Of a DNA stretch of 64,000 bases, positions 1,155 to 56,714 are shown piece by piece. The stretch is from Candidatus Rariloculaceae bacterium (GTDB taxonomy: Bacteria > Pseudomonadota > Gammaproteobacteria > Steroidobacterales > Rariloculaceae), in assembly GCA_045561055.1 (NCBI GenBank), contig JBJKYL010000013.1:64495-128494 (forward strand). The letters are read 5' to 3'. A program made the translations under genes and the position numbers. Each line of letters begins with the position of its first letter. Position 1 is the first letter of the stretch. Below the pieces are notes generated by a model. That model was given only the letters and a program-made list of their open reading frames with translations. It searched no databases and had not been told where the DNA came from.

Positions 1155-1607
1155 TTACAAGAAGAAACAATAGAATCAATTATATGATGGACAGCTTCGG
1201 GAGAGTTGTTCGCGATCTTGATTCAGTATGCCTGATTTCTGATGTGAATCGACGTCTCACGATCATCTAATACTGTTTCCGTGAGACAGACCCATATTGT
1301 CACGAAACGTGGATAGAGTATAGACACTATGGTTTGTGCATATCTAGTGGTTTCAGACCGGAACTCAAAGGGATCTTCGTTTTATCCTCTATATAGATAA
1401 AATCGTTTTTACATTACAGCAGAATTTTCGTATTGGGTAGACAGCCCTAGGCCTTATAGTCAGAGGGTTTTCCGTGTTTTTTGTTCCCCAATAGTTGAAA
1501 GAAAGGAAAGCATGGTGTGTATAAGTGCTTATGTTATTTGGGAAGCTATGGCTATAATTAGTGAGTTGCCAGTAACCCTGTCTGGATCAAAAAATTGGGC
1601 GAATGAG

Positions 1608-2693
1608 ATGACCATCAGAATGCTTTTGTGTCGGCTAGTTAAATCACTTGCGTCTGAAATTGTTTTTTTCGGCATCCTAAGTTTGCCTATCGTGAGTAGT
1701 GCTCATCATGCTATTGCTGGTAACTACGATTCCCAAACCGTCGTTGAGGTAGAAGGGGAAATTACGTCAATCTTGATGCGAAATCCGCATCCACAAATAG
1801 CGATGCGTGTCACGACAGAAAATGGTGAAGTACAGGATTGGCAGATGGCAACTACGGCGCTTAGCAATATGCGTAGGTGGCAGATTGATCCTGATTTTAT
1901 CCAAGTTGGCGATATTATTCGGGCGGCTGGAAATCCTTCTGTTCGAGTAGACTATGGGCTCTATATCAGTAACCTTTTGACCGCGGAAGGTGAAGAAGTC
2001 CTGTTAGGTGGCAACGTTCAGCCGATATGGACTGACCGTACGATCGAAATGTCTACAAGTAGACGTGCAGGGCTTGGCGATACCTCTTCACCGGAGCTGG
2101 GGATCTTTCGGGTCTGGAGTACAGTCGACAACATCCCCATGCTCATGCCGAGAAATATCGGCCGAACACCTGCAGGTCGCGCTAATCTTACCGAAGCCGC
2201 ACTTGTAGCGGTCGATGATTTTGATTGGGTGCGTGACAATCCACTAAAAAACTGTGCTGAAAAAGGTATGCCACTTATCATGGAAGCGCCCTATCCGTTT
2301 GAATTTCTGCAGGACGGTGAGAATATTCTCTGGCATAACGAGGAGTTCGATACCTATCGGACAATTCATATGTCGCCTAATGCTTCCACAGGTGGACAGC
2401 CAAACTCGCTACTCGGCTACTCGTTAGGGTACTGGGAGGACGAATTCACACTGGTCGTTAATACGAGCCACGTTAACTGGGGGCATTTCGACGGTCAGGG
2501 TGTTCCGGCAAGTACACAGTTAGAATCTATCGAGCGTTTTGAGCTAAGTCCACAAGGGGACCGGCTAGATTACAGCATCACAATCTCTGATCCGGTGTAC
2601 CTAATTGAACCAATGACTTTCGGTAAGCATTGGGTCTGGTACCCCGACGCTGAGGTCGGCGTCTACGATTGTTTGGTCGCAGCAGAAGATTAA
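1608..2693 (+). CDS. Exported fused N+C two-module protein (His-His/NPH N-module plus Cys-bracketed C-module), function unknown; paralog L1
   Basis: ORF track gives 1512-2693. I prefer the internal ATG at 1608 (MTIRMLLCRLV...PIVSSA|HHAIAG) because it yields a normal signal peptide. HH lies at 1704-1709, then LMRNPHPQI. Linker GIFRVWS; C-module NCAEKGMP, LGYSLGYWEDEFTLVVNTSH, ISDPVYLIEP, YDC near the end. Confidence 0.8.
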   Translation: MTIRMLLCRLVKSLASEIVFFGILSLPIVSSAHHAIAGNYDSQTVVEVEGEITSILMRNPHPQIAMRVTTENGEVQDWQMATTALSNMRRWQIDPDFIQVGDIIRAAGNPSVRVDYGLYISNLLTAEGEEVLLGGNVQPIWTDRTIEMSTSRRAGLGDTSSPELGIFRVWSTVDNIPMLMPRNIGRTPAGRANLTEAALVAVDDFDWVRDNPLKNCAEKGMPLIMEAPYPFEFLQDGENILWHNEEFDTYRTIHMSPNASTGGQPNSLLGYSLGYWEDEFTLVVNTSHVNWGHFDGQGVPASTQLESIERFELSPQGDRLDYSITISDPVYLIEPMTFGKHWVWYPDAEVGVYDCLVAAED

Positions 2694-2765: not shown

Positions 2766-3974
2766 CTATTCCATTAGTATAAATTTTTGTACGCGCTTAC
2801 CCGTCAGTACTTCGCCTGTATAAATATTGCCTTGCGAATCGCTCGCTATACCGTCGATCCAATAGAATTGACCCGCATTTCTTCCTGGGCTACCGAACTG
2901 TCCAACGTGGTCTCCCGTCATGCGGTCATGAATCCATACTCTATGATTTGTACCATCAGCGATAAACATGTATTTCTGTGCGTCGTCGTGAGAGAACGCC
3001 AAGCTGTAAGTTGTTCCACACATTGGTAGGGTTGCATGACCGGGCCCACCGCACATCGGACCACGTGCCGGTGTGTTCGGTGCTACATGGATGTCTTGAA
3101 CGTGTTCACCTTGCTTTGTGAAAACTTGAATGCGATTCATGCCGCGTTCACAGATGTAGACCAAACCGTCGTTAGAAATCATAGTGCAGTGAAGAGCTGG
3201 TGCGAACGCTTCTTGATAAGGCGGTGGGCCACCATTCCAATCATATGCCGGAGTGCGTTCGTTACTGATCTCGCTTAGCGGCATACCATGACCGCCCCAG
3301 CCGCGCTTAAAATCGCCGTTATCCATATCATAGACAAGCACGCGTTTGCCCTCAGTTAGATAAATCTCTCGGGCTTCGTTATCGAGCGTGAAGTTGTGCA
3401 CCCCGTTTACGAGTACGTCAGTCGCTTGATTGTCTTGAAAGTTTCTCGGTATCGGTATTTCGCCTGGTGCGGGCCTCGGGCCGCGAAAGGGAGCATCCCA
3501 GAGAAATTCTCCTTCGCGTGTAAACTTCATCAAGCCCTCACCCTGTCCGAACGCTGAAACCCAGACGTTGAAATCACTATCGACTACAACTGACTGTGGA
3601 CGTCGTGCCCACTGTGGATGAAAGCCAGGACCGCCCCATGCATTGTGTATATTCCCCTCGGCGTCGAATTCGATTATTTCGGGTGCCGGGATACAGCAGT
3701 CGCCACGAGGCGGTGAGTAAGTTGCCATTGCTTCGTCAGGGCGCATGTCATCAGCACGACTTACGGCCCATATGTGATCGTTCTTATCTGTAGTTATGAA
3801 GGGCACGCCTTGTATTAGCCAGGCGTTTGGAAACGGAACCTTCGGCCAGAATGGATCAACGGTGTATTCGGGTACAGCTATATCCTGTGCATAGGTGACT
3901 AGAGGAAGTGAGCTTAGTGTTACTAGTCCAATGAGAGAAAAGAAGTAATTTTCGCGTCGAAAAAATGTTTTCAT
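2766..3974 (-). CDS. Secreted NHL-repeat six-bladed beta-propeller, PAL-like (peptidyl-alpha-hydroxyglycine alpha-amidating lyase-like) with partly degenerate active-site positions
   Basis: Signal peptide MKTFFRRENYFFSLIGLVTLSSLPLVTYA|QD. VDPFWPKVPFP start, and the blade motifs LHCTMISNDGLVYICERGMNRIQVF and GIASDSQGNIYTGEVLTGKRVQKF, align to the paralog at 11601-12656 and to animal PAL as I recall it. Confidence 0.8.
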   Translation of the reverse strand: MKTFFRRENYFFSLIGLVTLSSLPLVTYAQDIAVPEYTVDPFWPKVPFPNAWLIQGVPFITTDKNDHIWAVSRADDMRPDEAMATYSPPRGDCCIPAPEIIEFDAEGNIHNAWGGPGFHPQWARRPQSVVVDSDFNVWVSAFGQGEGLMKFTREGEFLWDAPFRGPRPAPGEIPIPRNFQDNQATDVLVNGVHNFTLDNEAREIYLTEGKRVLVYDMDNGDFKRGWGGHGMPLSEISNERTPAYDWNGGPPPYQEAFAPALHCTMISNDGLVYICERGMNRIQVFTKQGEHVQDIHVAPNTPARGPMCGGPGHATLPMCGTTYSLAFSHDDAQKYMFIADGTNHRVWIHDRMTGDHVGQFGSPGRNAGQFYWIDGIASDSQGNIYTGEVLTGKRVQKFILME

Positions 3975-4285: not shown

Positions 4286-5875
4286 ATGAGGTATTGGCTT
4301 GTTTTTTTAACCGTGTTTGGTCTCAGTATTCCTGCAGCCTATTCTCAAGAAAACCGTCGTCCGAATATTCTTTACATTGTCGCGGATGATCTGGGATTCA
4401 CCGATATTGGCGCATTTGGTAGCGAAATATCAACGCCTAATCTTGATGCATTAGCTTACGAAGGCGTTAGGTTGACGAACTTTCACACGGACCGTTCTTG
4501 CCAGGCTACCCGCACGATGTTGATGACCAGCACTGGAACAGGAAGATCACTGCAACTCATTGGGAATCCTATGAGCGGTAGGCGTGGGCATCTGTTGCGA
4601 CAGGATTGGGCAATTCTTCCAGAATTTCTGCAGGACGCTGGTTACACGACGTTTATGACGGGAAAATGGGATCTTGGTATTGGCGAAAATTATACGCCAC
4701 ACACGCGTGGATTTGATCGTTCCTTCGTGCTCCTTGACGCTTCGGCTAGTCATTTTGCAGAAAAATTCTGGGAGGACCCGACACCGTATCGGGACGAAGG
4801 TGTCATAGTGACGATTGATGACTTGCCTGAGAACTTTTACTCCACCGAGTACTACACGGACAAAATGATCGAGTACCTACAGGCCCACGGTAGCGATGAG
4901 CCTTGGTTCGCATACGTCCCCTATACCGCGCCGCATTGGCCTTTACAACTTCCTGATGCTTGGCTGGACCGTTACGCTGGAAGATACGATGAAGGGTACG
5001 ACGTATTACGCGAAGAGCGCATGGTGAAAGCCGAAGAACTGGGCGTGTTGCCGCCGAATGCTGACCCAGATAGCTATACGTTCTCCGAAAGTTCCTGGGC
5101 AACACTCAGTGCAGAAGACAAAGTGAAGCATGCGCGTGCCCAGGAGATATATGCCGGTATGGTTGAGTACATGGATATGAGTGTCGGCCGGCTCGTAGAT
5201 TATTTAGAGCAAAGCGGTCAAATTGACGATACCGTGATCATGTTTTCTTCCGATCATGGTGGTTCCGACAGTGCGGCTGGTCTAGTGGAAGGTGCACAGA
5301 CGGGTAACGTGCCGAATCTTGACCGTCGCGTCGAGAATTACGGTCGTAAGCGTTCTTATATCGACCATGGGCCCGGATTTGCTTCAGCGTCGACGGCGCC
5401 GCTCAAGGGTTATAAAGGAATGCATACGGAAGGGGGGCTGACTGCTGCCGCGTTCCTTTGGTATCCGGCGCAGATCCTGGCCGGTACGGTGAATAACACC
5501 TACATGACTGTTATGGACGTATTACCAACTTTTCTTGAAATAGCGGAAACTGAACACCCCGGCGCGTCTGAGTATAAGGGGCGTCAAATTAAAGGTATCG
5601 TTGGTCGATCGTTTTGGCCACATCTGATCGGTGAAGCCGATTTAGTTCATCCCCCGACTGATATTACTGGATGGGTGAACCGCGAATTCGGCGCGTTGAT
5701 TCGCGGTAACTTCAAACTTGTTAATGGAGAATCGTTAAATGCCGACGGTGTATCGCCATGGCAGCTCTACGATCTTTCAATTGATCGTGGTGAGACACGA
5801 GATATCTCCGCCGAGCATCCCGAATTGACTGCAGAACTTGCCGCTGAATGGCAAGAGAATTGGAGTCAGCGTTAG
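4286..5875 (+). CDS. Exported Cys-type (formylglycine) arylsulfatase, AtsA-like
   Basis: Signal peptide, then PNILYIVADDLGFTDIGAFGSEISTPNLD and the FGly motif SCQATRTMLMTS (C-x-A-x-R); later SSDHGG. Shine-Dalgarno-like GGAG lies 5 nt upstream of the ATG. About 60 percent identical by eye to the broken paralog at 29975-31670. Confidence 0.9.
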   Translation: MRYWLVFLTVFGLSIPAAYSQENRRPNILYIVADDLGFTDIGAFGSEISTPNLDALAYEGVRLTNFHTDRSCQATRTMLMTSTGTGRSLQLIGNPMSGRRGHLLRQDWAILPEFLQDAGYTTFMTGKWDLGIGENYTPHTRGFDRSFVLLDASASHFAEKFWEDPTPYRDEGVIVTIDDLPENFYSTEYYTDKMIEYLQAHGSDEPWFAYVPYTAPHWPLQLPDAWLDRYAGRYDEGYDVLREERMVKAEELGVLPPNADPDSYTFSESSWATLSAEDKVKHARAQEIYAGMVEYMDMSVGRLVDYLEQSGQIDDTVIMFSSDHGGSDSAAGLVEGAQTGNVPNLDRRVENYGRKRSYIDHGPGFASASTAPLKGYKGMHTEGGLTAAAFLWYPAQILAGTVNNTYMTVMDVLPTFLEIAETEHPGASEYKGRQIKGIVGRSFWPHLIGEADLVHPPTDITGWVNREFGALIRGNFKLVNGESLNADGVSPWQLYDLSIDRGETRDISAEHPELTAELAAEWQENWSQR

Positions 5876-7717: not shown

Positions 7718-8728
7718 ATGAAGGTCTTAATAGTTCTGTTTTGTTTTATGTTAGCGCCGACGCTTGGTTTTTCGCACCATTCGCGAGCTGAGTTTTCAGA
7801 TGAAGTCGAAGAGATTACCGGTGAGCTCATTAGTGCGCGTTGGACTAATCCTCATCCAGAGCTGACATTGCTTGTTACTGGGGCGGACGGACTACAGGAG
7901 ACGCTCGTCGTCCAGGTATATGGTGCCGCTAACAATTTACGGCAAGCTGGCGTCACCGACGAGTTGTTCGATATTGGGGATGAGGTGACGATTGCTGGTC
8001 AGCGTTCCTCCCGTCGCGAAGACTTAATCCTCGGCACACATATGCTATTGGTTGATGGTAGACAGGCTATTTTTCATCGCACGTTAGAGCCGTTTTGGTC
8101 GACCGAAATCGTCGGCGGCATGGAAAATTTTCTCGAAGCTGGTTCGGGGCTTGCGGATGGGTTGGCGGAGAATCGAGGATTGTTTCGGATGTGGAGCATT
8201 GTGCAGGGTCCCGGTGGTGATCGTCGTAGTCTGCATATGCTATTGACTGAAGCTGGGATAGCCCGACAGGCTGAGTTCGATGAGGAAAACAGCTGGATTG
8301 GTCGCCTTGAAAAACCTGGCATGCCCGCTTTTATGAACAGTCGCAATAATTTCGAATTCTTTGACGATGGTGACACGATTCGTTACGAGCAAGGCGTGTT
8401 TGATGTCGTACGAACTATCTATCTCCCGGAATCAGAGGGGTTAGAGGACCCTTCCCACTCACCACTAGGTTACTCGACCGGACGGATGGAAGGTAGGACT
8501 TTAATTGTTGAGACAACTCGGCTTAATTGGCCTTACTTTAATCGCGAAGGGATTCCGTTAAGTGAAGATGTGCATATTACTGAGAGATTTACCGTAAGTG
8601 ACGACCAGACAAGTCTCGATTATCACATGACCATTGTCGATCCTGTTAACTTTTCGGAGCCAGTAACTTTGACGCGCCATTGGGTAGCGCTAGAGAACCC
8701 GACGCCTGACGAACGCTACGTTCGATAG
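7718..8728 (+). CDS. Exported fused N+C two-module protein, paralog L2 (the only Cys-free member)
   Basis: MKVLIVLFCFMLAPTLGFS|HHSRAEF, then RWTNPHPEL. Linker GLFRMWS. C-module has EKPGMP (no Cys), LGYSTGRMEGRTLIVETTRLNWPYF, TERFTVSDD, VDPVNFSEP, and a C-terminus ENPTPDERYVR with no Cys. Confidence 0.85.
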   Translation: MKVLIVLFCFMLAPTLGFSHHSRAEFSDEVEEITGELISARWTNPHPELTLLVTGADGLQETLVVQVYGAANNLRQAGVTDELFDIGDEVTIAGQRSSRREDLILGTHMLLVDGRQAIFHRTLEPFWSTEIVGGMENFLEAGSGLADGLAENRGLFRMWSIVQGPGGDRRSLHMLLTEAGIARQAEFDEENSWIGRLEKPGMPAFMNSRNNFEFFDDGDTIRYEQGVFDVVRTIYLPESEGLEDPSHSPLGYSTGRMEGRTLIVETTRLNWPYFNREGIPLSEDVHITERFTVSDDQTSLDYHMTIVDPVNFSEPVTLTRHWVALENPTPDERYVR

Positions 8729-8752: not shown

Positions 8753-9859
8753 TTAAATACCAAATACACGCTCGGCAGTGCGGTGAAATATTTTTGCTCT
8801 ATCGCTACTTGATAGCGGCGCATCCTCGATCATCTTAACTAATGGTTCATTGATGCCATAGGGATAGTCGACAGCGAACATGATTCGGTCTGCGCCAAGT
8901 ACTTCCATGCAGAGATTCAACGTAGGGGGTGAGTTCATGCCACTAGTTGTTATTACAAAGTTGTCGAGAAAGTATTCACTCGGCATGCGTTGTGCGATCC
9001 AGTTAGGCGACTGATAGAAACGTCTTAACGTCGAGTCGAGTCGGTCAAGCCAGAAGGGCACGCCTTCTCCCATATGTCCAAGAATCACGGTGAGATTGGG
9101 GAACTGGTCGAATACGCCACCTAACATCATCCGCACGGCGTGCAGTGAGCTTTCCATATGAAAACCCCAGGTGGCGCCTTCTAACGGATATTCCGTAAAC
9201 GGATCCAACATGCCAGCCGGCGGCGTACGCGGGTGCAAGTAAACAGGTGCGCCAGCGGCTTCCGCACTTTCCAGTATCGGCCAGAATTTTTGGTTATCCA
9301 GAAACTCGCCCTTCGTATGCGAATTAATAACAATGCCGTGAAGGCCGAGGGTCCCAACGGCGCGTTCTAATTCTAGTGCGGCACCCTCGATATCCTGTGG
9401 CGCGAGTGTCGCTAGGGCCGCAAATCGTGTTGGGTGCTTCTCAACGATTTCAGCAGCACGGTCATTGGCAAGGCGGGCAAGCTCAGTTGCTTGCTCTGCG
9501 CCGAAGGCCTGCACTCCAGGTGAGGTTAGCGATAAGACTTGCATATCGATACCAGCCGCATCCATGGCATCCAGCCGCTCGCCCTCCAGATCGGCAAGCC
9601 GATCCCAGATTCCTGCGAAGGGCGTACCGATAATACGGTTATAGAAGGTTGTATAACCCGGTTCATCCGCTGCACCGGTTGCCATTAGTTCGTGTATAGC
9701 CGCGGTTATTTCCGGGATAATAAAGGCTTCTTCGGTTGTGATTCGACGGAATGCTGTTTCACTTTGGGACCATGCTGTGCGCCCCGGCCCGATGAAAGCT
9801 AGGGAAGCGAGTGATGCTTTCTGCAGGAAATCTCGTCTATTGTTATTCAATGGAGCCAC
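8753..9859 (-). CDS. Tat-exported amidohydrolase-2 (ACMSD/LigW-like metal-dependent hydrolase/decarboxylase) family protein
   Basis: Twin-arginine signal MAPLNNNRRDFLQKASLASLAFIG. Then ITTEEAFIIPEI, INSHTKGEFLD, LHPRTPP, ILGHMGEGVPFW and FAVDYPY, typical of Amidohydro_2 TIM barrels. The start lies 1 nt after the upstream YceI stop. Confidence 0.75.
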   Translation of the reverse strand: MAPLNNNRRDFLQKASLASLAFIGPGRTAWSQSETAFRRITTEEAFIIPEITAAIHELMATGAADEPGYTTFYNRIIGTPFAGIWDRLADLEGERLDAMDAAGIDMQVLSLTSPGVQAFGAEQATELARLANDRAAEIVEKHPTRFAALATLAPQDIEGAALELERAVGTLGLHGIVINSHTKGEFLDNQKFWPILESAEAAGAPVYLHPRTPPAGMLDPFTEYPLEGATWGFHMESSLHAVRMMLGGVFDQFPNLTVILGHMGEGVPFWLDRLDSTLRRFYQSPNWIAQRMPSEYFLDNFVITTSGMNSPPTLNLCMEVLGADRIMFAVDYPYGINEPLVKMIEDAPLSSSDRAKIFHRTAERVFGI

Positions 9860-9860
9860 T

Positions 9861-10481
9861 CTAGTTAGATGTTAGTTGTTCGGAATCAATGCGTTTCGCT
9901 TCTACGGTAATTTTTAGGTTGACATACATCAGGTGACCATTCTCTATGCCGTAGGTAACGCCATAGTCGTCGCGATTGAAGGTGCCGGAGGCGTCAGCTC
10001 CACAAATCATTTCTTCAGCACGACGGTGGTGTGGTTGGCATCGAAAATGTTCAATCGTTAGTGATAGCGGGTTCGTAACGCCGTGCAGCGTTAGTTCGCC
10101 TTCAATTCCGGTCGGATCGCCATATCTCGTAAACGATGAAATGATGCCGGTATAGCTAGCTGTCGGAAATTGGGCAACGTCGAGGATGTCTTCGGCTTTC
10201 GCATGCCTATTCATGTCGTCTAGACCGAAATTAATGGAATCCATATCGAATGTTAGGTCGACAGAGCCCGTCTTCGCTTCTTGATCAAGGATTATCGTGC
10301 CGGCTGTCCGTTCAATTTTTCCGCGCCAAATAGAGAGTCCACCCTGATGGTCTGCCTCAAAAGTCGGGAACGTATGTCGCGGGTCGACTTCGTAGAGAAC
10401 TGGTTCCGCAGAAATTACAGTCATCGCAATAGTGCAAAAACAACCGAGTGTTGCGCTAAGAAATTTCGTATTACCAATCAT
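9861..10481 (-). CDS. YceI-like periplasmic lipid/polyisoprenoid-binding protein
   Basis: Signal peptide, then YEVDPRHTFPTFEADHQGGLSIWRGKIERTAGTIILD and ELTLHGVTNPLSL, which is the YceI family signature. Confidence 0.8.
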   Translation of the reverse strand: MIGNTKFLSATLGCFCTIAMTVISAEPVLYEVDPRHTFPTFEADHQGGLSIWRGKIERTAGTIILDQEAKTGSVDLTFDMDSINFGLDDMNRHAKAEDILDVAQFPTASYTGIISSFTRYGDPTGIEGELTLHGVTNPLSLTIEHFRCQPHHRRAEEMICGADASGTFNRDDYGVTYGIENGHLMYVNLKITVEAKRIDSEQLTSN

Positions 10482-10493
10482 TAGGCTATACCT

Positions 10494-11546
10494 CTATCGA
10501 GTAGTGTAAGTTTCGTAGTATTCGTTTCTAGCATTGGTGATTGTGAAGCGACTACCGTCTGCTTCAATCTCCGCTTTGATCCAGTGAGCTTGATCGTTTT
10601 CCACAGTTAGGTTAGCAGTTTTTCGGGCCTCGGTGTTATGGGCGTCGTCCGTTCCTGTCGCGCGATGCATTTGCCAGAAGCCCTCAAGACCGGGGCTTGC
10701 CGCGGCTGTTTCGTAACCGTCGGGATTACCGCCCTTTGTCGCGCCGGTACTGGAGACTGCAGCAATCGGCGCCAGCGACCATACGAACTGTGGCGCAATA
10801 TTGTTGCCATGATGCGGGTAGTCGAGTAGATCGATTGTGCCAACGTTATTGGTTGGGCAGACAAGTGTGTGCAAACCACCCCACGACAGATCGCCGACGT
10901 TGACGTACTGAAAGTCGCCCATCGAGAGATGGAAGCCTAGGCTGTATATGTCCTCGCCATCCGTATCGAGCCCGGTTGGCGCGCAGTCGTCGCCTCTACA
11001 GTACAGGCCATTCGGATCTGTATTTTCGCAAACGGGGTTCGGACCCGGTGATCCGGCCAGAGGTGCGCCAAGGAATTGCTTGTCTCCGGCTATAATTGTT
11101 ACATCGACGCCGCTGAGCGGTAGGATATCTCCCGGCGAGACTGAAGTTCTCTTTCCGGTCTCCGCTGCGGTCAGGTAACGCTCGAAGTTCTCGACTTGGC
11201 GGCCGGAAGTCAGGGTGCTGTCTCCGTAGTCGATAAACTCGATGATCGGCACCATTTCCGCTAGCGCGTAAACCCCGCCCACATGATCGCCGTGAAAATG
11301 AGTCGCGACGAAGTAGTCGAGCTGTCCGACCGCGGCGTCGTCCATGGCGGCTTTGATGCGGTGCGAGTAGATGTCGCCCGGCCGGTCGAATGCGGCGTCT
11401 ACCAGGATCGCCTGGCGCTCCGGCGTCACGATCAGCGTGGCTGCGGCACCGTCGGCGTCGATCCAATAGATATCCATATGTTGTCCATAAACAGCTGATG
11501 TCAAGCAAAGTAGGAGGAGTCCTAACCAGATGTTTACGTTTTTCAT
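10494..11546 (-). CDS. Secreted MBL-fold metallo-hydrolase with intact metal motif
   Basis: Signal peptide MKNVNIWLGLLLLCLTSAVYG. Intact motif VATHFHGDHVGGV (HxHxDH) and a later YPHHGN. Confidence 0.8.
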   Translation of the reverse strand: MKNVNIWLGLLLLCLTSAVYGQHMDIYWIDADGAAATLIVTPERQAILVDAAFDRPGDIYSHRIKAAMDDAAVGQLDYFVATHFHGDHVGGVYALAEMVPIIEFIDYGDSTLTSGRQVENFERYLTAAETGKRTSVSPGDILPLSGVDVTIIAGDKQFLGAPLAGSPGPNPVCENTDPNGLYCRGDDCAPTGLDTDGEDIYSLGFHLSMGDFQYVNVGDLSWGGLHTLVCPTNNVGTIDLLDYPHHGNNIAPQFVWSLAPIAAVSSTGATKGGNPDGYETAAASPGLEGFWQMHRATGTDDAHNTEARKTANLTVENDQAHWIKAEIEADGSRFTITNARNEYYETYTTR

Positions 11547-11600: not shown

Positions 11601-12656
11601 TTAATCAGATACGAGATTAAAACGCTGGACTCTTCGTCCACTAGACGTTTCGGCAACGTACAGGTTGCCATGTGAGTCGGTATCAAGGGTATGACCATGA
11701 GTAAAGTAGCCGAGCTGGTGTCCCGGTCGTCCGAAGTGTGACAAGTTTTCTCCAGTCTCATGGTCTAAGACGTGTACCTGCTCTTGAGCGCCGTTCATGA
11801 TGTAAAGGTATTCTTGATCTTCGTCTGGTGAAAAAGCCACCCACCAGGTCGTTCCTCGGTTGATTGGGTCTTCGATGTAATCGTCAGTCCTAGCAACGCG
11901 GATGTCTCTAATGTGGTTGCCAGTTTTATCAAAAACCTGAACACGACTAGCCTGTCGATCACAGACATAGATAAGTCCTTCGTTGCTCATGGCGATACAG
12001 TGAACGACTTCTGCAAAGGCACCTGGTGGTGGGTTACTCCGTTCTTGTGCGGTAGCGTGGCGTCCCCATTGGCGGAGATAGTTTCCCTCTGAATCAAATA
12101 CTACAACGCGTTTATTACCGTAACCGTCAGAGATATAGATGTCCCCATTTTCTGGGTCAACAACGGCACCAGAGGGTCGGTGTAGTAGGGTGCGGCTAGA
12201 ATTTTTAAGTTCTGTTTCCCGAGTACCATCCTCAGTATCAAACAATCGTTTTGTGCCAATCTGCAATAGCAATTCACCGTCATGACTATACTTTTGGACG
12301 ATAGCATCCTGATTACCGCCTATGTAGACATTGTCATCGGTGTCGAAACTACAACCGTGTACAGCTTGCGGTACGAGATTGGGATCACCCCATGAATTCA
12401 CGAGGTTGCCTTCCATATCAAACATCATAAGCGTGTCTGCTGGTCGGCCAGTTTGCATTTCTTCGTCGTTGATATTACGGCGGTCCACAATAACGATATG
12501 ATCGTGAGAGTCGACGCACACGCCACCAATTTGACCATTAATCCAGGTTTCTGGGAGAGGTTTCGGCCAAGTTGGGTCAACCTCAAATTGGGGTTGGGCC
12601 TCTGTTGTAAGTGACCAGAAGAGAAGCATTAGAAGCGGTGACATCAACTTTCGCAT
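11601..12656 (-). CDS. Secreted NHL-repeat beta-propeller, PAL-like with complete catalytic residue set
   Basis: ORF track gives 11601-12689. The internal ATG at 12656 gives MRKLMSPLLMLLFWSLTTEA|QPQFEVDPTWPKPLP. AVHGCSFDTDDNVYIG, ISDGYGNKRVVVFDSEGNYLRQWG, VVHCIAMSNEGLIYVCDRQASRVQVF and FTHGHTLDTDSHGNLYVAE align with PAL YLPHGLSIDTDGNYWV, SDGYCNSRIVQF, VPHSLAL..CVADRENGRIQCF and MPHDIVASEDGTVYIGD. Confidence 0.85.
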   Translation of the reverse strand: MRKLMSPLLMLLFWSLTTEAQPQFEVDPTWPKPLPETWINGQIGGVCVDSHDHIVIVDRRNINDEEMQTGRPADTLMMFDMEGNLVNSWGDPNLVPQAVHGCSFDTDDNVYIGGNQDAIVQKYSHDGELLLQIGTKRLFDTEDGTRETELKNSSRTLLHRPSGAVVDPENGDIYISDGYGNKRVVVFDSEGNYLRQWGRHATAQERSNPPPGAFAEVVHCIAMSNEGLIYVCDRQASRVQVFDKTGNHIRDIRVARTDDYIEDPINRGTTWWVAFSPDEDQEYLYIMNGAQEQVHVLDHETGENLSHFGRPGHQLGYFTHGHTLDTDSHGNLYVAETSSGRRVQRFNLVSD

Positions 12657-13051
12657 TTTTTTCTCCATCAGAATGGGTATGGATAGCATAATTTTTCTAC
12701 GGATGTGCTTTTTTCAAAGTGATCTTATTATTCTACTAGAGATTGGCTATGTGTATACAATTTGAGAGCCAGTCATTACCAAGGGTTAGTTAGCAGTAAC
12801 GAAAGGTTATGGGCACTGCTCAACTGTGCCTACATCGGTGGAGTTAAATAATCACGTTACACATTGCTATGAAGTTTCTTATTAGATTGGATGTTATTGA
12901 ATGTTGCCTATATCAATCTATTCTTTTATTTTTTTTAATGAGGTAGTAACTGATGCTGGGTAGTATATTATGGTGTTTAATATAATTAAAATAGTAGCGT
13001 CTTAGGTTTAGTCAAAAGCTGCTTAAACTCAACGGGGAGAAATACGCAATA

Positions 13052-13966
13052 ATGCTGAATGTTTATCGATTCGGATTTTATTGGGATCCATGTTCGCTAT
13101 TGGTGGTCGCCGGGTTTTCTGCACTAGTTAGTGCGCCAGTATCTGGACAAGTTGATATTGATAATATGTGGCGTCCTCTGCCTCACAATCAGGACGGTAG
13201 CGGCATGATTGGCGATGCTGCTGGTGTGCCGCTAAATGACGATGGTAAATCGCGAGCAGAGACCTGGTCGCCTGACCAATTCGACATGGCTGAGTGGGTC
13301 TGCCGGCCGCACGCTTGGGACGTTTCTCTGGAAGGTCCGTTAGCTCAAGTACGGTTCTCGTCACAATACGATGCCGCAACGCAAGGGGTTGATGCATACC
13401 TTGGCCACATCTACATGCAGTGGCAGCAACAGACCATCTGGATGGATGGCCGCCCACATCCATCGAAGAACGCGCCACATACATGGAGCGGCTTTACGAC
13501 CGGTGAATGGCAAGGCGATGTCCTGGTGACAACCACCACGCATGTCAAGGAAGATTATGTTCGACGTTGGGGCTTGCCGCGCAGTGATCAAACAACCCTG
13601 AGGACACACTGGCGCAGAATGGGCGACTACCTTCAGGCGACTGTCATCATGTATGACCCGATCTACATGACGGAGCCTTACACCCGTAGCTCGCTGATGT
13701 GGATTAGGGATCCCGGGCTGAACATGGATCCATACCCTTGCGAAGAGGCAACGGAGACTGCGGTACCAAAAGGCACTACGGCGCATTTTTTGCCCGGACA
13801 GTCATATATGCCGGCGTACGATCCCGAGCGATCGGATTCTTTCGCGACGCCGTATGAAGCGAGAAGAGGGGGAGCAGAGTCTATGTACCCGGACTACATC
13901 CGAAAGATGGAAACAATGGCTGCTCCCTCGTTAACTTTAGATCCCGCCGATATTCGAAGCAACTAG
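13052..13966 (+). CDS. Exported C-module-only protein (paralog C1), function unknown
   Basis: Signal peptide ending VSAPVSG|QVD. EWVCRPHAWD, WSGFTTGEWQGDVLVTTTTHVKEDY, MYDPIYMTEP and DPYPCEEA match the C-module pattern of the fused paralogs. First gene of a tight plus-strand operon. Confidence 0.7.
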   Translation: MLNVYRFGFYWDPCSLLVVAGFSALVSAPVSGQVDIDNMWRPLPHNQDGSGMIGDAAGVPLNDDGKSRAETWSPDQFDMAEWVCRPHAWDVSLEGPLAQVRFSSQYDAATQGVDAYLGHIYMQWQQQTIWMDGRPHPSKNAPHTWSGFTTGEWQGDVLVTTTTHVKEDYVRRWGLPRSDQTTLRTHWRRMGDYLQATVIMYDPIYMTEPYTRSSLMWIRDPGLNMDPYPCEEATETAVPKGTTAHFLPGQSYMPAYDPERSDSFATPYEARRGGAESMYPDYIRKMETMAAPSLTLDPADIRSN

Positions 13967-13970
13967 TGAT

Positions 13971-14981
13971 ATGTTGAAAGTTACACGTTTCGGAGTTAGC
14001 CGCCTAACGATCAGTCTATGTCTGGCGAGCTTGCTTGCGTCTGGAGCCCAAGCACAGATATGGCCGACGTCAGTAATTGGGGTGCCTGAAGGGGAGATAG
14101 AGGTTCTCCACGTCAAAGGTAACGTCTACATGTTAGCGGGTTCCGCTGGCAACATTGCGGTGCAGGTCGGTCCTTCAGGTGTGTTAATGGTGGACACCGG
14201 TAGTGCTGCGCTGGCCGATAAGGTATTAGCAGCGGTCGAGACGATCACGAGCGAGCCAATCCGCTACATCGTTAATACCAGTTACCCGGAGGATTATACC
14301 GGTGGCAATGGGACGATTTCGGCGGCTGGACGGTTAGCGACCCCGTTTCGCGGCAGCGGAAGTAGTTCTGTGCAGGGCCAATTCGGTGGGGACAGATCTT
14401 CTGTCATCTCCTACTACACCGTGTTTCATCAGATGGCGGCACCCTCCGATGAGGCGCTAGTCAGAGAGGAAAATTCGTGGCCGGATAATACATTCTCGAC
14501 GCCATTGAAGCGATTGTATTTTAACGACGAGCCAGTGATGATGATGCACCAACCGTCGACGACCGACGGTAACACGATCGTGCTATTCCGAAAATCGGAT
14601 GTCATTGCGGCGGGCGCTGCGCTTAATTTGGAAACCTATCCCGTTATCGATATTGAGGCCGGCGGCAGTATTCAGGCAGTGGTTGTTGCGTTAAATCGGG
14701 TGATTGATATGGCGGTGCCTTCCGAGCGTTCTGAAGGCGGAACGCTGGTGATCCCAGGCCGTGGCAGAATCTCTGATTTTGCAGAGGTGGCACAGCAACG
14801 GGATATGATTTCAATTATCCGCGACCGTGTTCAGAGCATGATTAACGAGGGTATGTCCTTGGCCGATGTGCTCGAAGCAAGACCAACCGAAGGCTATGAT
14901 GTTCGCTATGGAAGTGATAGTGGTCCATGGACAACAGACATGTTTGTCGAAGCAGCCTATTTGAGCCTGGTGGGGCAGTGA
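13971..14981 (+). CDS. Secreted MBL-fold protein with degenerate metal-binding motif (probable pseudoenzyme or binding protein)
   Basis: Signal peptide ...LLASGAQA|QIW. NVYMLAGSAGNIAVQVGPSGVLMVDTGS is the MBL beta-hairpin start. Where HxHxDHxGG is expected the sequence reads IVNTSYPEDYTGGNG, so only the Asp is kept. Starts 4 nt after the upstream stop. Confidence 0.7.
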   Translation: MLKVTRFGVSRLTISLCLASLLASGAQAQIWPTSVIGVPEGEIEVLHVKGNVYMLAGSAGNIAVQVGPSGVLMVDTGSAALADKVLAAVETITSEPIRYIVNTSYPEDYTGGNGTISAAGRLATPFRGSGSSSVQGQFGGDRSSVISYYTVFHQMAAPSDEALVREENSWPDNTFSTPLKRLYFNDEPVMMMHQPSTTDGNTIVLFRKSDVIAAGAALNLETYPVIDIEAGGSIQAVVVALNRVIDMAVPSERSEGGTLVIPGRGRISDFAEVAQQRDMISIIRDRVQSMINEGMSLADVLEARPTEGYDVRYGSDSGPWTTDMFVEAAYLSLVGQ

Positions 14982-15000
14982 TTAAGCAGGGAGTTTTCTG

Positions 15001-15399
15001 ATGAAACAATTTAGATTGATGCTACCGTTTGTGATTGGCGGAATTGTTTTTCTGGCAATTACTGGACGCGTACTGGCACACCATTCGTTCTCAGCGACTT
15101 ACCTGCAAGGCAATCAAATCGAAGTCCAAGGCGCAGTTAAGGAACTAGTATGGCGTAATCCGCATTCCTTCTTAAGAATCGATGTTGAGGATGAGAATGG
15201 TGTGTTGCAGACGTGGTCATTGGAATGGACTTCTGCAAATCGGCTGGCCGGTACTGAGATGACCCGAACGACGCTCCGTCCGAAAGACGTCGTTATTGCA
15301 ACTGGAGATCCAGCACGAACCCCGGGAGCGCCACGTCTTTTGCTTCGCCAGTTGAGGCGGCCTAGCGATGGTTGGGAGTGGATTGGTGATATCGACTAG
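15001..15399 (+). CDS. Exported N-module-only protein (His-His/NPH; DUF6152-like by recollection), paralog S1
   Basis: MKQFRLMLPFVIGGIVFLAITGRVLA|HHSFSATYLQGNQIEVQGAVKELVWRNPHSFLRIDVEDENG...WSLEW...; 132 aa. Its end overlaps the next gene. Confidence 0.85.
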   Translation: MKQFRLMLPFVIGGIVFLAITGRVLAHHSFSATYLQGNQIEVQGAVKELVWRNPHSFLRIDVEDENGVLQTWSLEWTSANRLAGTEMTRTTLRPKDVVIATGDPARTPGAPRLLLRQLRRPSDGWEWIGDID

Positions 15400-16189
15400 T
15401 ACTATAACTTCGTTCCGATCTGGGGTTATCCAGGCACTGTTGCTTTGCTTTGCAGGGTGCTCGGCCTTTGCGCAAGACGGAGGCGAGATCACCGGACGTC
15501 AGCGCATGTCGGAGTCGCAAAATTTGACAGGCTACTGGGTCTCAGTTGTGACACAGCATTGGCACTATCGAATGCGAATGCCGCCGAAGGGGGCGACGGC
15601 CAAGATCCCACTTAATGAGACAGGGCGCCGAATTCTTGAGTCTTGGAATCCTGAGGCTGATGCTGCCAATGGCCATGCCTGCCGTGCCTATGGCGCTGGT
15701 AATATCATGCGTATACCAGGCCGCTTTCATATACATTGGGCGGATGACAATACGCTACAGATTGATACCGATTCTGGTACTCAGACGCGTCTTCTACAAT
15801 TCGCTCCGCAAACGTCAGCTTCCGAGGTAGAACCATCGTTACAGGGGCGGTCTGCAGCAGCATGGGTTGGAAGGGAAGGTGCGCCAGAGGGTAGTCGTAA
15901 CGCGGATCAGAACGATCCTAATGCAGTTCGATACTTGGTTGCGTCTACCTCTCGCCTGCTTCCAGGGTATCTGTTGAAAAATGGAGTTCCCTACAGCGGT
16001 AGTACGACTCTTGAGGAATATTTTTACACGTTCACAGAGCCAAATGGTGACGAATGGCTCGTCGTGACAACATTGATCGATGACCCAGAGTTTCTAGCTC
16101 GGCAGCATGTCACCACTAACCAATATAAGAGAGAGCCAGACGACTCTGGGTGGGACCCAACGCCTTGCCAGGTTGATAAGCCTCGTTAG
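15368..16189 (+). CDS. C-module-only protein, probable lipoprotein (paralog C2)
   Basis: ATG at 15368 or in-frame GTG at 15386. Signal with LLLCFAGC lipobox-like end. NLTGYWVS, GHACRAYGAGN, VVTTLIDDPEFLARQ and WDPTPCQ match the C-module in a diverged form. Overlaps the upstream N-module gene by 32 nt (or 14 nt). Confidence 0.65.
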   Translation: MVGSGLVISTSTITSFRSGVIQALLLCFAGCSAFAQDGGEITGRQRMSESQNLTGYWVSVVTQHWHYRMRMPPKGATAKIPLNETGRRILESWNPEADAANGHACRAYGAGNIMRIPGRFHIHWADDNTLQIDTDSGTQTRLLQFAPQTSASEVEPSLQGRSAAAWVGREGAPEGSRNADQNDPNAVRYLVASTSRLLPGYLLKNGVPYSGSTTLEEYFYTFTEPNGDEWLVVTTLIDDPEFLARQHVTTNQYKREPDDSGWDPTPCQVDKPR

Positions 16190-18540: not shown

Positions 18541-19641
18541 TTAGGGTCCAGCGAATGCGGCTTCAAATTGCAAATGGCGTCGTGAAGTCTCTTCGTCACA
18601 GACTTCACTGCTGAACTCATAATCCGGAACTTTCATCGTCATTTTTCTGAGAGTGAAGGGTTCTCTCAAGAATACGGGGTCCTCTATTGTGTACGAGTAA
18701 TCCATACGCAGCCCACCGTCAACTAACTTATAGCGCTCTGTGACTATCATTTGATCACTGGAATTGATCCCTCGGACTATACCCCAGGGCATCGCCCGGA
18801 ATGCATGCGTTTCCACCACGAGGGTATCGTCACTTTCGAAGTGGCCGACCGAATAACCGAGTTCGGTCAGTTCGTAGTCATTAGGCGGCTGCCACGGGCC
18901 ATTCAGATGGATGACCCGAACCTGGCCAGTCGTGTCCTGAGTGATGCGAATTTCACTTTCCGTTCGGGTCCATAGGCGTGGGAACGGCCAATCGATGATT
19001 CTTGGTAACGCCATCGGCACGCAATCGAAATATGGATCAGTATTGGCATCATAATCTTCCGTCAATTCCTGCCCCCTTTGCGTGAGCGCCATGTCTGCCC
19101 ACGGGGTTTCAAAGTTGCTCACTAGCATCCTTCTGAGATCTTCCGCCCGAGGTAAACCGGAATACCTTGTCCATGTCCCCGAGAAGTCGGTGGAAGGTTC
19201 AAGGGTCACAGATTCGGATTCATCTCGCTGATCCGTTGGCAGTACTGCTTGCTGGAAAGAGTAGAGCAACGTCCCATCGTCGCGTCTGACCGAGTCGAGA
19301 AGCGCGAGCCTTATGCCTTGAGTACGACTCGGGTTCGCTACGACGACGAGGTGGTCTCCTAGTTTTAATGCGTCTCTACTCCAGCCGTTTCTCTCCAACC
19401 CAGAAACGGAGTGTGACTCCAGCGTCCATTCTTCAGATTGGCTACCTTGTTCAGTGGAATTTACCACGAGGTAAACATGCGGATTGCGCCAAGTTATTTC
19501 GGTGACTGTGCCCTCAATCTCGATTGTCTCATCCAGTAAGAAACCTGAGCGAGAATGATGCCCCAGAGTCTGGAAACTTTGTAAAAAAGCTAGACAGAAA
19601 AACGAGGAAAGGCCAAGACTAATTATTCTTGATCTATTCAT
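18541..19641 (-). CDS. Exported fused N+C two-module protein, paralog L3
   Basis: ...FLQSFQTLG|HHSRSGF, TWRNPHVYL, GDHLVVVANP. C-module has FSGTWTRYS, YFDCVPMALP, LGYSVGHFESDDTLVVETHAF, TERYKLVDGG, IEDPVFLREP and SEVCDE. Confidence 0.85.
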   Translation of the reverse strand: MNRSRIISLGLSSFFCLAFLQSFQTLGHHSRSGFLLDETIEIEGTVTEITWRNPHVYLVVNSTEQGSQSEEWTLESHSVSGLERNGWSRDALKLGDHLVVVANPSRTQGIRLALLDSVRRDDGTLLYSFQQAVLPTDQRDESESVTLEPSTDFSGTWTRYSGLPRAEDLRRMLVSNFETPWADMALTQRGQELTEDYDANTDPYFDCVPMALPRIIDWPFPRLWTRTESEIRITQDTTGQVRVIHLNGPWQPPNDYELTELGYSVGHFESDDTLVVETHAFRAMPWGIVRGINSSDQMIVTERYKLVDGGLRMDYSYTIEDPVFLREPFTLRKMTMKVPDYEFSSEVCDEETSRRHLQFEAAFAGP

Positions 19642-19749
19642 TACTTTTTTATTCGAAAGTTAAGTAAAAGTCACCCTGAAAAGATCGCTATTATCGAATT
19701 GGATATGCACGGATATCCTTTATATACGAGCCTTACTTGTTAAAGAGTT

Positions 19750-20817
19750 TTAAAGTTCCCATTCGGGCACACAATCGAATTCGTATAGGTTTACTCCAGG
19801 TATCCATCTACGGGGCATCTCTAGCGTCACGGGTTCTGCCAGCATGACCGGGTCTGTCATTGTAAATGTATAGTCTAACCACTCCCCATTTTCCCGTGTC
19901 GAGAATCGTTCAAGATAAGTCATTTGATCGGATTGTGGCATTGAACCCTCTAAGGCAATGGGATGATCGATATGACTTGTGTTCACAATGAGATCATCTC
20001 CCTCCCAGTGGCCTAGCGAGTAGCCAACATTCGAATAGGTCGGTTCAGGAGCGGTCTCAGCGTTCATGTAGACGTAGCGATGCGTGTTGTACTGTTCAAT
20101 CCAAATATGGACTATATCGTCCTGATTTTCGATTAGGATTCTAGATCGTTCGAACATTGCCGTCGGCATGCCAGTCTGGCACTGCAGTTCGGTAGCATCG
20201 TTACCCCCCGGATCTAGCGTGGCGGCGATCGCATGGCCCTGGTCTGAAAGATATGGCTGATATGCAGAGAGCGGTGGTTGCGAGGCTTGCCGTATACTCC
20301 ATAGACGGAATATGCCGTCTGCATTCGCTCTGTCCTCTGCGATTCTAGCTTCGGTAGCCGCCATCTCGCTAGGTTCCCAGAGTTGACCCCATCGTGCCGT
20401 CGTTACGCCAGCCATCCCGCCTATATGTTCTAAACCATTGGGCAATAGAAGGTTAGTTAGTCCTAAGGCTGATGGATCACGTCTGGAGACAAAGCCCGCC
20501 GCCCTAACAAAATCTCCAACCTGCACAAATTCTTCCTGGGTAACACCAGCTCGAAGGAATGTGGTGGGGCTTGGGCTCGCTTCGAGCTCCCAAACTTTTC
20601 CGTCCACATCCTCCATACGATAACGTATATGTGGAGCACGCCAGAAAACATCGGTGATTGTGCCTTCGACCTCAACTGGATCGTCTGGATTAGGTGCGAT
20701 ATATAGCGCTTGATTAGTGACGCCACCGTGATGGGCATTAACGACGGCTGCAAGGAATACGCCGAATACACCAACGATGGACCAAATAACGGATCTGAAG
20801 CTTTTTAGAATCGACAT
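19750..20817 (-). CDS. Exported fused N+C two-module protein, paralog L4
   Basis: ...FLAAVVNA|HHGGVTNQ, FWRAPHIRY, GDFVRAAG. C-module has GIFRLWSI, ELQCQTGMP, VGYSLGHWEGDDLIVNTSHIDH, LERFSTRENG, MTDPVMLAEP and YEFDC. Confidence 0.85.
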   Translation of the reverse strand: MSILKSFRSVIWSIVGVFGVFLAAVVNAHHGGVTNQALYIAPNPDDPVEVEGTITDVFWRAPHIRYRMEDVDGKVWELEASPSPTTFLRAGVTQEEFVQVGDFVRAAGFVSRRDPSALGLTNLLLPNGLEHIGGMAGVTTARWGQLWEPSEMAATEARIAEDRANADGIFRLWSIRQASQPPLSAYQPYLSDQGHAIAATLDPGGNDATELQCQTGMPTAMFERSRILIENQDDIVHIWIEQYNTHRYVYMNAETAPEPTYSNVGYSLGHWEGDDLIVNTSHIDHPIALEGSMPQSDQMTYLERFSTRENGEWLDYTFTMTDPVMLAEPVTLEMPRRWIPGVNLYEFDCVPEWEL

Positions 20818-22714: not shown

Positions 22715-23133
22715 CGATTTGGGGGTTCCTCAGTAAATATGACCTCACCTGTGTCCGTGAGGATAACCTGCGCTCCGTTGGCACCACGCGAAAGTCTGAT
22801 ACTAGGGGCTCCATTCTTCATTGCTAAGCCGCGAACTGTCACTCTATCACCAGGTTTCAGGATATTTTTGTGCCAGCCTTCCGTGGCCATTAGCGGTGGG
22901 TTATTGAATTCGGCCATCCAGCGCACCGGATTGCCAGCTTCATCTTCTACTTCAACAGCGAGTAGCGCGTGGGGATTGATAAACATTAACTGAATGACTG
23001 TGCCGGAAATTTCTGATAGCTGATCTTCGTATCGACCAGCTGTGCCGTGATGCGCATATGCAACTGAGCTTACCAATACACTCACAGTCAGTACGTGAAG
23101 TGCGGCATGAAAGCGTCTATTTACTTTGTTCAT
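22711..23133 (-). CDS. Exported N-module-only protein (His-His/NPH), paralog S2
   Basis: MNKVNRRFHAALHVLTVSVLVSSVAYA|HHGTAGRYEDQLSEISGTVIQLMFINPHALLAVEVEDEAGNPVRW...GDRVTVRG; 140 aa. The stop overlaps the propeller start by 4 nt. Confidence 0.85.
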   Translation of the reverse strand: MNKVNRRFHAALHVLTVSVLVSSVAYAHHGTAGRYEDQLSEISGTVIQLMFINPHALLAVEVEDEAGNPVRWMAEFNNPPLMATEGWHKNILKPGDRVTVRGLAMKNGAPSIRLSRGANGAQVILTDTGEVIFTEEPPNR

Positions 23134-29856: not shown

Positions 29857-29974
29857 TAAGAAAATTAGCTGGATGCGCACATCAATATTTGCTTATAGGT
29901 AAACTCCTTGCAAACTAGATCTGTTATCTTCCTGGTGTAAAGCGCTCGCAAAATAATAATAGGTGAGGAGTCAT

Positions 29975-39367: not shown

Positions 39368-39613
39368 ATCATAATCAAGTTTGACACGATTCCCTCACTA
39401 CAATCAGAGAGCGTGATTCAAAATAGTAATGAGTAAACGATAAAATATTATCACTTGCGTTAAAATCGCATCGGCTCTGCAAAATTGTGTCCATCTACAA
39501 TATCATCAAGACGGTACTACTTCCTGCTTGCCGTTATAATAAGTGATCACATTTGTGAATATGCTTCCGAATTTAGTGAGTAAATATTAATGAATCTTCG
39601 TGCAGAGTGGAAT

Positions 39614-52587: not shown

Positions 52588-52605
52588 TGATATAGATGCT
52601 GAAAA

Positions 52606-53511: not shown

Positions 53512-53515
53512 CGTC

Positions 53516-54244: not shown

Positions 54245-54274
54245 TAAAGCTTCCTAATAATTTCTACGATTCGA

Positions 54275-55189: not shown

Positions 55190-55202
55190 AGAGAAACACC
55201 GG

Positions 55203-55847: not shown

Positions 55848-55855
55848 CGGAATAG

Positions 55856-56701: not shown

Positions 56702-56714
56702 GGCCTTTGTTGCT

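Follow-up and report, generated by a model that had tools for sequence, protein, structure and literature searches.

Two PAL-like genes in a Candidatus Rariloculaceae window

The DNA analysed here, hereafter the window, is a stretch of 64,000 nucleotides from a Candidatus Rariloculaceae bacterium, a marine gammaproteobacterium (assembly GCA_045561055.1, contig JBJKYL010000013.1, forward-strand positions 64,495 to 128,494). It carries two genes, termed Q1 (11601-12656) and Q2 (2766-3974), whose products are supported as exported NHL propellers and as homologues of PAL, the lyase domain of peptidylglycine alpha-amidating monooxygenase (PAM), which in animals acts immediately after the copper monooxygenase PHM. 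For Q1 the homology extends to an intact active site, and this conclusion is solid. The coordinates of both genes, of the key residues of Q1 and of the surrounding features are collected in Table 1.

The longest open reading frame (ORF) of Q1 covers 11601-12689 on the minus strand and encodes 362 aa; residue numbers in this text refer to it, and subtracting 11 converts them to the 351-aa model that starts at 12656 and is identical to NCBI MFL2553868.1 (locus tag ACJ0S4_04140) of the Candidatus Rariloculaceae metagenome-assembled genome (MAG). The protein is single-domain, its C terminus stops directly after the sixth blade, and it has four conserved cysteines (C58, C113, C231 and C243). Pfam recognises NHL repeats and, apart from these, short partial matches to propeller families. 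Q1 and its relatives appear in public databases as 'hypothetical protein', 'NHL repeat-containing protein' or 'DNA-binding beta-propeller fold protein YncE', and Q1 is an unannotated member of an already known kind of protein. Bacterial sequences are already placed together with PAL in domain databases (CDD 'NHL_PAL_like'). Signal peptides are found on Q1, on Q2 and on the operon neighbours.

Table 1. Positions, in window coordinates, of the PAL-like genes, the key residues of Q1 and the features around them
Feature	Position	Strand	Basis or remark
Q1, PAL-like six-bladed NHL beta-propeller, 351 aa	11601..12656	(-)	ORF, Pfam NHL, rat PAL match, AlphaFold2, Foldseek
Q1 Sec-type signal peptide MRKLMSPLLMLLFWSLTTEA, predicted cleavage before QPQFEV	12597..12656	(-)	read directly from sequence
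Q1 R70, aligned to rat R533	12480..12482	(-)	phmmer; codon checked
Q1 H111, blade 2 innermost strand, aligned to Zn ligand H585	12357..12359	(-)	phmmer, AlphaFold2; codon checked
Q1 Y190, DGYGN loop of blade 3, aligned to catalytic Y654	12120..12122	(-)	phmmer; codon checked
Q1 H230, blade 4 innermost strand, aligned to Zn ligand H690	12000..12002	(-)	phmmer, AlphaFold2; codon checked
Q1 R245, aligned to substrate-carboxylate-binding R706	11955..11957	(-)	phmmer; codon checked
Q1 H333, blade 6 innermost strand, positional equivalent of Zn ligand H786	11691..11693	(-)	blade position, local alignment; codon checked
Q2, exported PAL-like paralogue, 402 aa, divergent conserved subfamily	2766..3974	(-)	NCBI MFL2553860.1, same MAG
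Genes downstream of Q1, same strand, short gaps, likely one operon	8753..11546	(-)	coordinates, Pfam
MBL-fold protein, Q1 operon	10494-11546	(-)	
YceI, Q1 operon	9861-10481	(-)	
Tat-signal Amidohydro_2, Q1 operon	8753-9859	(-)	twin-arginine motif NRRDFLQKA at start
Fused DUF6152 + C-domain protein, convergent with Q2	1512..2693	(+)	
Divergent operon beside Q1	13052..16189	(+)	genomic context
C-only N/C member, 13052 operon	13052-13966	(+)	
SoxH-like MBL, 13052 operon	13971-14981	(+)	
DUF6152 N-only protein, 13052 operon	15001-15399	(+)	
C-only N/C member, 13052 operon	15368-16189	(+)	
N/C genes	1512-2693, 7718-8728, 13052-13966, 15001-16189, 18541-20817, 22711-23133, 31702-32715, 39590-40905, 45497-46851		

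Fold and active site of Q1 compared with rat PAL

The preliminary description of this DNA, made from the letters alone, had proposed that Q1 is a PAL homologue that retains the three Zn-binding histidines, the catalytic tyrosine and the arginines of the animal enzyme, and the comparison with solved structures agrees with it on every one of these points. Its quoted motifs AVHGCSFD, VVHCIAMS, FTHGHTLD, SDGYGNKR, VDRRN and CDRQASR were all found in the translation. A phmmer search of the PDB sequences aligned Q1 with rat PAL (3fvz, E 1.2e-15) in one colinear stretch, residues 49-266, which covers blades 1-4; the repeat-rich NHL domain of Drosophila Thin was the sole sequence match that scored above PAL. 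Within this alignment identical residues are paired at R70-R533, H111-H585, Y190-Y654, H230-H690 and R245-R706 (Q1-rat), the rat numbers being those of full-length PAM (5wm0), present in the same output, and the tyrosine lies in SDGYGNKR, aligned to SDGYCNSR of rat PAL. Chufan and co-workers are said to have described the roles of the rat residues in 2009, including the Zn ligands H585, H690 and H786.

The fold gives the same picture. An AlphaFold2 model of Q1, built from an alignment of 56 sequences, has a pLDDT (predicted local distance difference test) of 90.6 and shows six four-stranded blades, preceded by an N-terminal helix of low confidence. Among the PDB structures its top Foldseek match is 3FVZ (E 1.4e-20, template modelling scores 0.72/0.79, 360 aligned columns), which ranks first of 1767 matches, with the NHL domains of Thin and TRIM proteins placed below it. 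In the model, position 2 of the innermost strand in blades 2, 4 and 6 is occupied by H111, H230 and H333, and the PAL counterparts read LPHGLS, VPHSLA and MPHDIV. H111 and H230 are thus equivalent to Zn ligands by alignment and H333 by blade position; around the latter, H331 corresponds to M784 and T334 to D787, which in rat PAL is a Ca ligand. Q1 therefore presents the six-bladed fold, the three His, the Tyr and both Arg of the PAL family. Among the motifs quoted above only the three His and the Gly-Tyr are specific to PAL, the Arg motifs being in part generic to NHL repeats.

Two attempts to place the third His by sequence alone were set aside: HMMER put PAL blade 6 on blade 4 of Q1 with an insignificant score, and a search with the C-terminal 85 residues of Q1 matched TRIM and Thin repeats alone. 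Per-blade local alignments between Q1 and PAL were weak.

Conservation of the active site in bacterial homologues

We gathered 86 homologues from 80 species representatives, sharing 33-83% identity with Q1 and including Acidobacteriota, Vicinamibacterales, Bryobacterales, Bradyrhizobium, Burkholderiales and Alpha-, Beta- and Gammaproteobacteria. About 96% of this set keep the six residues: R70 is present in 84 sequences, H111 in 84, H230 in 85, R245 in all 86, H333 in 83 and Y190 in 83, the last count being inflated by the use of DGYGN as one search pattern of the genome scan. By contrast, the H331 position, which precedes H333 by two residues, is freely variable (W, A, H, G, F, S), and the residue after H333 is Ser, Thr, Asn or Ala. 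Such near-invariance of six polar residues over many phyla, at an overall identity of about 35%, is the signature of a working active site.

For a recount free of the pattern bias, an exhaustive HMMER search of 1.84 billion cluster representatives (50% identity) was made, and it delimited a PAL-like family of 512 clusters at E<=1e-30. The full six-residue set was present in 27 of 55 single-domain representatives, the unbiased sample; four more were C-terminally truncated but otherwise complete, and six had Glu instead of Tyr. Representatives without the full set were mostly truncated fragments or Tyr-to-Glu variants, and the sample as a whole agrees with the first count. The Tyr-to-Glu subgroup (P0442, P0454, P0478, P0483, P0489 and P0499) keeps the three His and both Arg, and its Glu is possibly another general base; in one genome locus such a gene (L016:9989-11065) lies about 2 kb from a Tyr-type paralogue. 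Separately, a 'PPRSKCC' insertion, resembling one in the Q2 subfamily described below, is found in Bradyrhizobium homologues, which retain the full His3/Tyr site.

The Q2 subfamily

Q2 is 33% identical to Q1 and bears a Sec-type signal peptide at its N terminus. Its key positions are R73, Q127, a deletion where Q1 has the DGYGN loop, H262, R277, W372 and D374, with W372-I-D374 standing where Q1 has H-G-H. The motifs LHCTMIS, CERGMNR and WID are present in the translation, and the residue-by-residue account given in the preliminary description (middle His and Arg kept, Gln at the first His, the Tyr deleted, WID at the third His) proved accurate.

Its label for this copy, 'degenerate', was misleading, however, as the substitutions are fixed across the subfamily. 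We sampled the 118 cluster representatives most similar to Q2 (P0323-P0441; 53-95% identity, Acidobacteria included). The third-His position is Asp in 118/118, with Trp two residues before it in 117; the Tyr loop is deleted in 113, and the second His and both Arg are present in all 118. The first His is kept in 93 members, and the site reads Gln/His/Asp in 25, Q2 among these. Two further Cys pairs are conserved, and the subfamily carries an inserted 'PPRxxCC' segment together with a second Cys pair. The idea that Q2 is a decaying pseudo-enzyme is ruled out by this clade-wide conservation. Judged from its sequences, the subfamily is one with a rewired site, mostly His/His/Asp and devoid of Tyr, for which PAL-type catalysis is unlikely; Q2 might instead carry out a different metal chemistry, or bind a ligand only.

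Genomic context

Q1 is the first of four genes on the same strand, followed by those for an MBL-fold protein, YceI and Amidohydro_2. YceI recurs beside the Q1 homologue in locus L165, and an Amidohydro_2 gene, 48% identical at the protein level, directly follows the Q1 homologue in L161-L164. A scan for promoters and terminators around this operon returned fewer sites than shuffled controls. The window as a whole is an island of exported proteins, with four to five sulfatases, two MBLs, an esterase-ricin protein, a protein resembling 3-keto-disaccharide hydrolase, and 13 genes of the N/C family, that is, proteins with a DUF6152 'N' domain, an uncharacterised 'C' domain, or both. The orientations reported earlier hold: Q2 is convergent with the gene at 1512/1608-2693, and Q1 is divergent from the 13052 operon.

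A PHM-like domain (Cu2_monooxygen) was absent from the window ORFs scanned (whole genomes were not searched), and PHM was likewise absent from the contexts of close Q1 relatives, where called genes carry Pfam labels. When the ORFs around 80 PAL-like loci were clustered, the commonest real neighbour occurred in at most 12/80, and when Pfam families were counted over the 123 genes immediately next to PAL-like genes, none exceeded seven, a figure reached by SDR and HupE_UreJ_2. Neither PHM nor the DUF6152 family was among the 25 commonest neighbour families. Some relatives are fused to other domains, namely MBL, FAH, an SGL lactonase propeller, a periplasmic binding protein or a second propeller (P0471, P0517, P0466, P0527 and P0453/P0459/P0492, respectively), and the scan of the 10 longest or multi-domain relatives showed no fusion to PHM. 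A link between the MBL domain fused in P0471 and the MBL genes of the window was considered and dropped, as it shows no similarity to either of them.

Several further arrangements were recorded around PAL-like genes. The HupE/UreJ_2 proteins, membrane proteins of metal-transporter type that flank the PAL-like gene in 7 of the 123 slots (L001-L071, tied with SDR), may represent clade-specific synteny and might be related to metal supply. In three lineages about 62-65% identical to Q1, the PAL-like gene is preceded, on its own strand, by a gene for a YncE/cytochrome-d1-like propeller (L167:6961-7803, L169:8946-9977 and L170:8954-9982). The gap between the two is about 20 bp, reaching as much as about 200 bp in L167, and the YncE-like gene may be a lineage-specific operon partner. 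At least two PAL-family ORFs occur within 10 kb in 9 of 91 sequences (the loci plus the window), as pairs or triplets (e.g., L033, L057 and L063), and a paralogue of 412-413 aa directly adjoins the Q1 homologue in L165 (6577-7815) and L166 (9725-10966).

Elsewhere in the window, a sulfatase is split into two overlapping ORFs (29963-30730 and 30567-31670, plus strand), each of which matches a half of the sulfatase at 4286-5875 with 51% identity, and a TonB-dependent receptor is split into plug and barrel ORFs (28587-29612 and 27438-28490, minus strand); these are frameshifts, pseudogenes or MAG assembly errors. Where this island, with its many predicted metalloenzymes, comes to its edge, a locus for metal uptake is found (51631-56824, minus strand); its genes encode two ZnuA-type binding proteins, an ABC-3 permease, an ABC ATPase and a DUF4198 protein.

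Proposed function of Q1 and its alternatives

By analogy with the rat enzyme, we lean towards reading Q1 as a periplasmic Zn-dependent lyase with PAL-type chemistry. The comparisons above establish its homology, its fold, the equivalence of the residues and their conservation; its metal, reaction and substrate we infer as follows. H111, H230 and H333 would bind a divalent metal, most probably Zn, where the central channel opens, and the metal would polarise the hydroxyl group of an alpha-hydroxy-alpha-amido acid. The base would be Y190, carried by the loop of blade 3 (Glu in one subgroup), and R245 with R70 would anchor the substrate carboxylate. Elimination across the N-C(OH) bond of the carbinolamide, assisted by the metal and the Tyr, would then yield an amide plus glyoxylate or a similar carbonyl compound. 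The substrate need neither be the precursor of a peptide hormone nor be made by an enzyme of the PHM type. Genes related to amides and peptides recur near close relatives of Q1 (Amidase, Asparaginase, Amidohydro_1/2/3, Peptidase_M24 and the formamidase-type FmdA_AmdA), and these amide-processing neighbours are a soft hint that points to amides.

Several observations count against this assignment. The pairing of H333 with H786 is based on blade order, colinearity and a weak local alignment. The patterns D-x-x-N-x-R and 'DR.N.R[IV]Q.F' are generic NHL-repeat consensus, found also in TRIM71 and Thin, and an Arg at the position of R706 is common in non-catalytic NHL repeats too, which makes it a weak discriminator. 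The structural Ca2+ site of rat PAL uses the side chain of Asp787, a residue replaced by Thr in Q1, and the disulfide Cys that follows the catalytic Tyr in PAL (DGYC) is missing from DGYGN of Q1. Neither the window nor the labelled surroundings of close Q1 relatives showed a PHM-like gene that could supply an alpha-hydroxyglycine substrate, and the PAL-like loci share no conserved operon partner from which a pathway could be read. Lastly, the literature searched contained no activity, metal or substrate data for bacterial members, nor any description of a bacterial PAL homologue.

The same His3 metal site could also serve another reaction. Q1 would then be a Zn-dependent hydrolase of the periplasm (lactonase, esterase or amidase), and its substrate a compound of the catabolic island that bears a carboxylate. 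We regard this main alternative as rather unlikely. It accords with the fusion of relatives to SGL lactonase, MBL or FAH domains, with the MBL, Amidohydro_2, esterase and sulfatase genes in the neighbourhood, and with the weak partial matches of Q1 to Pfam SGL/gluconolactonase. The SMP-30/gluconolactonase match (PF08450, 31 bits), however, spans only residues 232-266 and 35 of the 246 profile positions, far from full-length membership. It is also generally known that propeller enzymes with a central metal are often lactonases (SMP30/PON), but their metal ligands are Glu, Asn and Asp rather than three His. It also tells against a hydrolase that the closest solved structure, and the sole one sharing the constellation of His3, Tyr and Arg, is PAL, and that the strict co-conservation of the Tyr with the His triad mirrors PAL.

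DUF6152 proteins and the oxidise-then-cleave idea

The preliminary description had suggested, as a speculation, that a putative metalloprotein of the N/C family, lying next to a PAL-like lyase, takes the part of PHM in a two-step, oxidise-then-cleave chemistry in the periplasm. In its full form, the DUF6152 N/C proteins would be periplasmic copper oxygenases that hydroxylate a substrate which the PAL-like lyase then cleaves. A metal site in the N/C proteins is indeed plausible, given that they have an invariant NPH His, an invariant Asp and a mature N terminus of His-His after the signal peptide, the last found in all nine N-domain members of the window and in all 50 aligned sequences. The fold of a fused member, modelled with AlphaFold2 (pLDDT 89), is an OB fold plus an FABP/lipocalin-like barrel, which is not PHM-like; its PDB matches were weak (E about 1e-3) and none was to PHM, LPMO or CopC. 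The N/C profile found no sequence relative in the PDB, our literature search retrieved no paper mentioning DUF6152, and we know of no metal or oxygenase evidence for these proteins.

The adjacency on which the suggestion was built is real, with Q1 and Q2 each lying beside an N/C member, but it is what chance would give. N/C genes make up 13 of the 54 genes of the window (five fused, four N-only and four C-only), and the non-N/C genes touching one number 15/41 in the whole window and 14/28 in its first 47 kb; at such density, the position of Q1 and Q2 is unremarkable. One N-only DUF6152 gene (22711-23133, minus strand) is followed, with a 4-nt overlap, by a gene for a 580-aa FG-GAP repeat protein (20972-22714, minus strand) that replaces the usual C-domain partner.

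Linkage across genomes was then assessed by locus, in both directions. With hidden Markov models of the two domains, the N domain was found within 10 kb of the PAL-like gene in 4/80 genome loci and the C domain in 8/80. Conversely, the surroundings of N/C genes were examined in 80 metagenome loci, of which 38 reached 8 kb or more. A PAL-like gene was present in three of the 80, one of these from the window's own organism; this reverse scan used a narrower N/C alignment, as the broad alignment offered no conserved stretch. Linkage this rare in both directions, along with the fold, argues against N/C proteins as a PHM-like partner.

Closer to Q1 the association is stronger. DUF6152 genes lie within 10 kb in 8 of the 12 lineages at least 62% identical to Q1 (the window, L026, L003, L161, L165, L166, L169 and L171, as opposed to L001, L167, L168 and L170), and in L003 and L166 the N/C gene is directly upstream on the same strand. 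The arrangement and strand nevertheless vary, the genes are mostly not co-operonic, those genomes are rich in N/C copies, and the Q1 operon itself has no N/C gene. We read this regional association in close marine relatives as shared residence in periplasmic catabolic islands, with coupling not demonstrated. That the DUF6152 proteins act as oxygenases feeding the PAL-like lyase is consequently very improbable, and we hold it equally doubtful that in marine Gammaproteobacteria of the Rariloculaceae type the PAL-like lyase and the expanded N/C family form one periplasmic oxidise-then-cleave system; if they did, this bacterial counterpart of PHM followed by PAL would act on amide-containing dissolved organic matter by dealkylating or de-glycinating it, with an oxygenase unrelated to PHM.

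Comparison with known propellers and lyases

Rat PAL and Q1 share the six-bladed NHL propeller, an extracytoplasmic compartment and the residues at R533, H585, Y654, H690, R706 and H786. They differ, beyond an identity of only about 24% and the missing DGYC Cys, in the replacement of D787 by Thr, Ser or Asn in Q1 and its homologues, in a different conserved Cys pair (C231/C243) in Q1, in their location (bacterial periplasm versus secretory granule), and in the partner, as PHM is missing from the window of Q1 and from the neighbourhoods of its relatives. A PAL need not be joined to PHM, standalone soluble PALs being described in insects and scorpions (PMC6669573). The animal enzyme is reported to be six-bladed, with Ca and Zn sites, and human R703 (rat R706) to be a substrate-binding residue of its active site (PMC10303134).

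Among bacterial proteins the best NCBIfam match is ScyF (NF035926), from the cyanobacterial scytonemin cluster, which like Q1 is an exported NHL propeller. Q1 scores 103.6 bits and Q2 37.1 bits against a cutoff of 350 bits, which places both outside that family, and Q1 differs from ScyF in that it lacks a PEP-CTERM tail and scy genes around it and is matched over blades 2-4 only.

The NHL domains of Drosophila Thin, TRIM2/3/71 and Brat belong to the same repeat family and fold as Q1 and, through the NHL motifs, reach comparable E-values; unlike Q1, they are RNA- or protein-binding modules of multidomain cytosolic proteins, without the His triad and the Gly-Tyr loop. That Q1 is itself a non-catalytic propeller binding a ligand or protein, its likeness to the PAL site being a relic, is hardly credible: most characterised NHL domains (TRIM, Brat, Thin and the PknD sensor) do bind, with sequence scores near that of PAL, and ScyF has no assigned chemistry, but binding-type domains lack the His triad in the alignments, where one Thin blade alone shows such a His, and the six polar residues of Q1 are near-invariant over many phyla while the neighbouring H331 varies.

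For the PAL-type lyase that we favour, parallels in chemistry exist outside the propellers. Ureidoglycolate lyase (EC 4.3.2.3) and the methylguanidine hemiaminal lyase MdgL (PMC12508155) break down N-C(OH) compounds to an amine or amide plus a carbonyl, as is proposed here for Q1, but they have unrelated folds and belong to cytoplasmic pathways with defined partners. The authors of the MdgL study (PMC12508155, 2025) name PAL as the only similar activity known to them and report that it has no homology to MdgL.

Implications

The entire PAL active site is kept in a large bacterial family that ranges from soil Acidobacteriota and Bradyrhizobium to marine Gammaproteobacteria. To our knowledge, PAL chemistry is known experimentally only from the peptide-amidation pathway of eukaryotes, and PAL-like activity of the bacterial family is a prediction from homology. 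Natural variants with which the mechanism may be dissected are offered by the Tyr-less Q2 subfamily (His/His/Asp) and by the subgroup that has Glu instead of Tyr. Should the bacterial proteins be active carbinolamide lyases, they would provide simple, secreted, PHM-independent enzymes for biotechnological C-terminal amidation, and they would suggest that the lyase half of peptide amidation is older than the eukaryotes. For the bacteria themselves, such activity would represent an unrecognised periplasmic step in the turnover of oxidised peptides, N-acylglycines and related amides.

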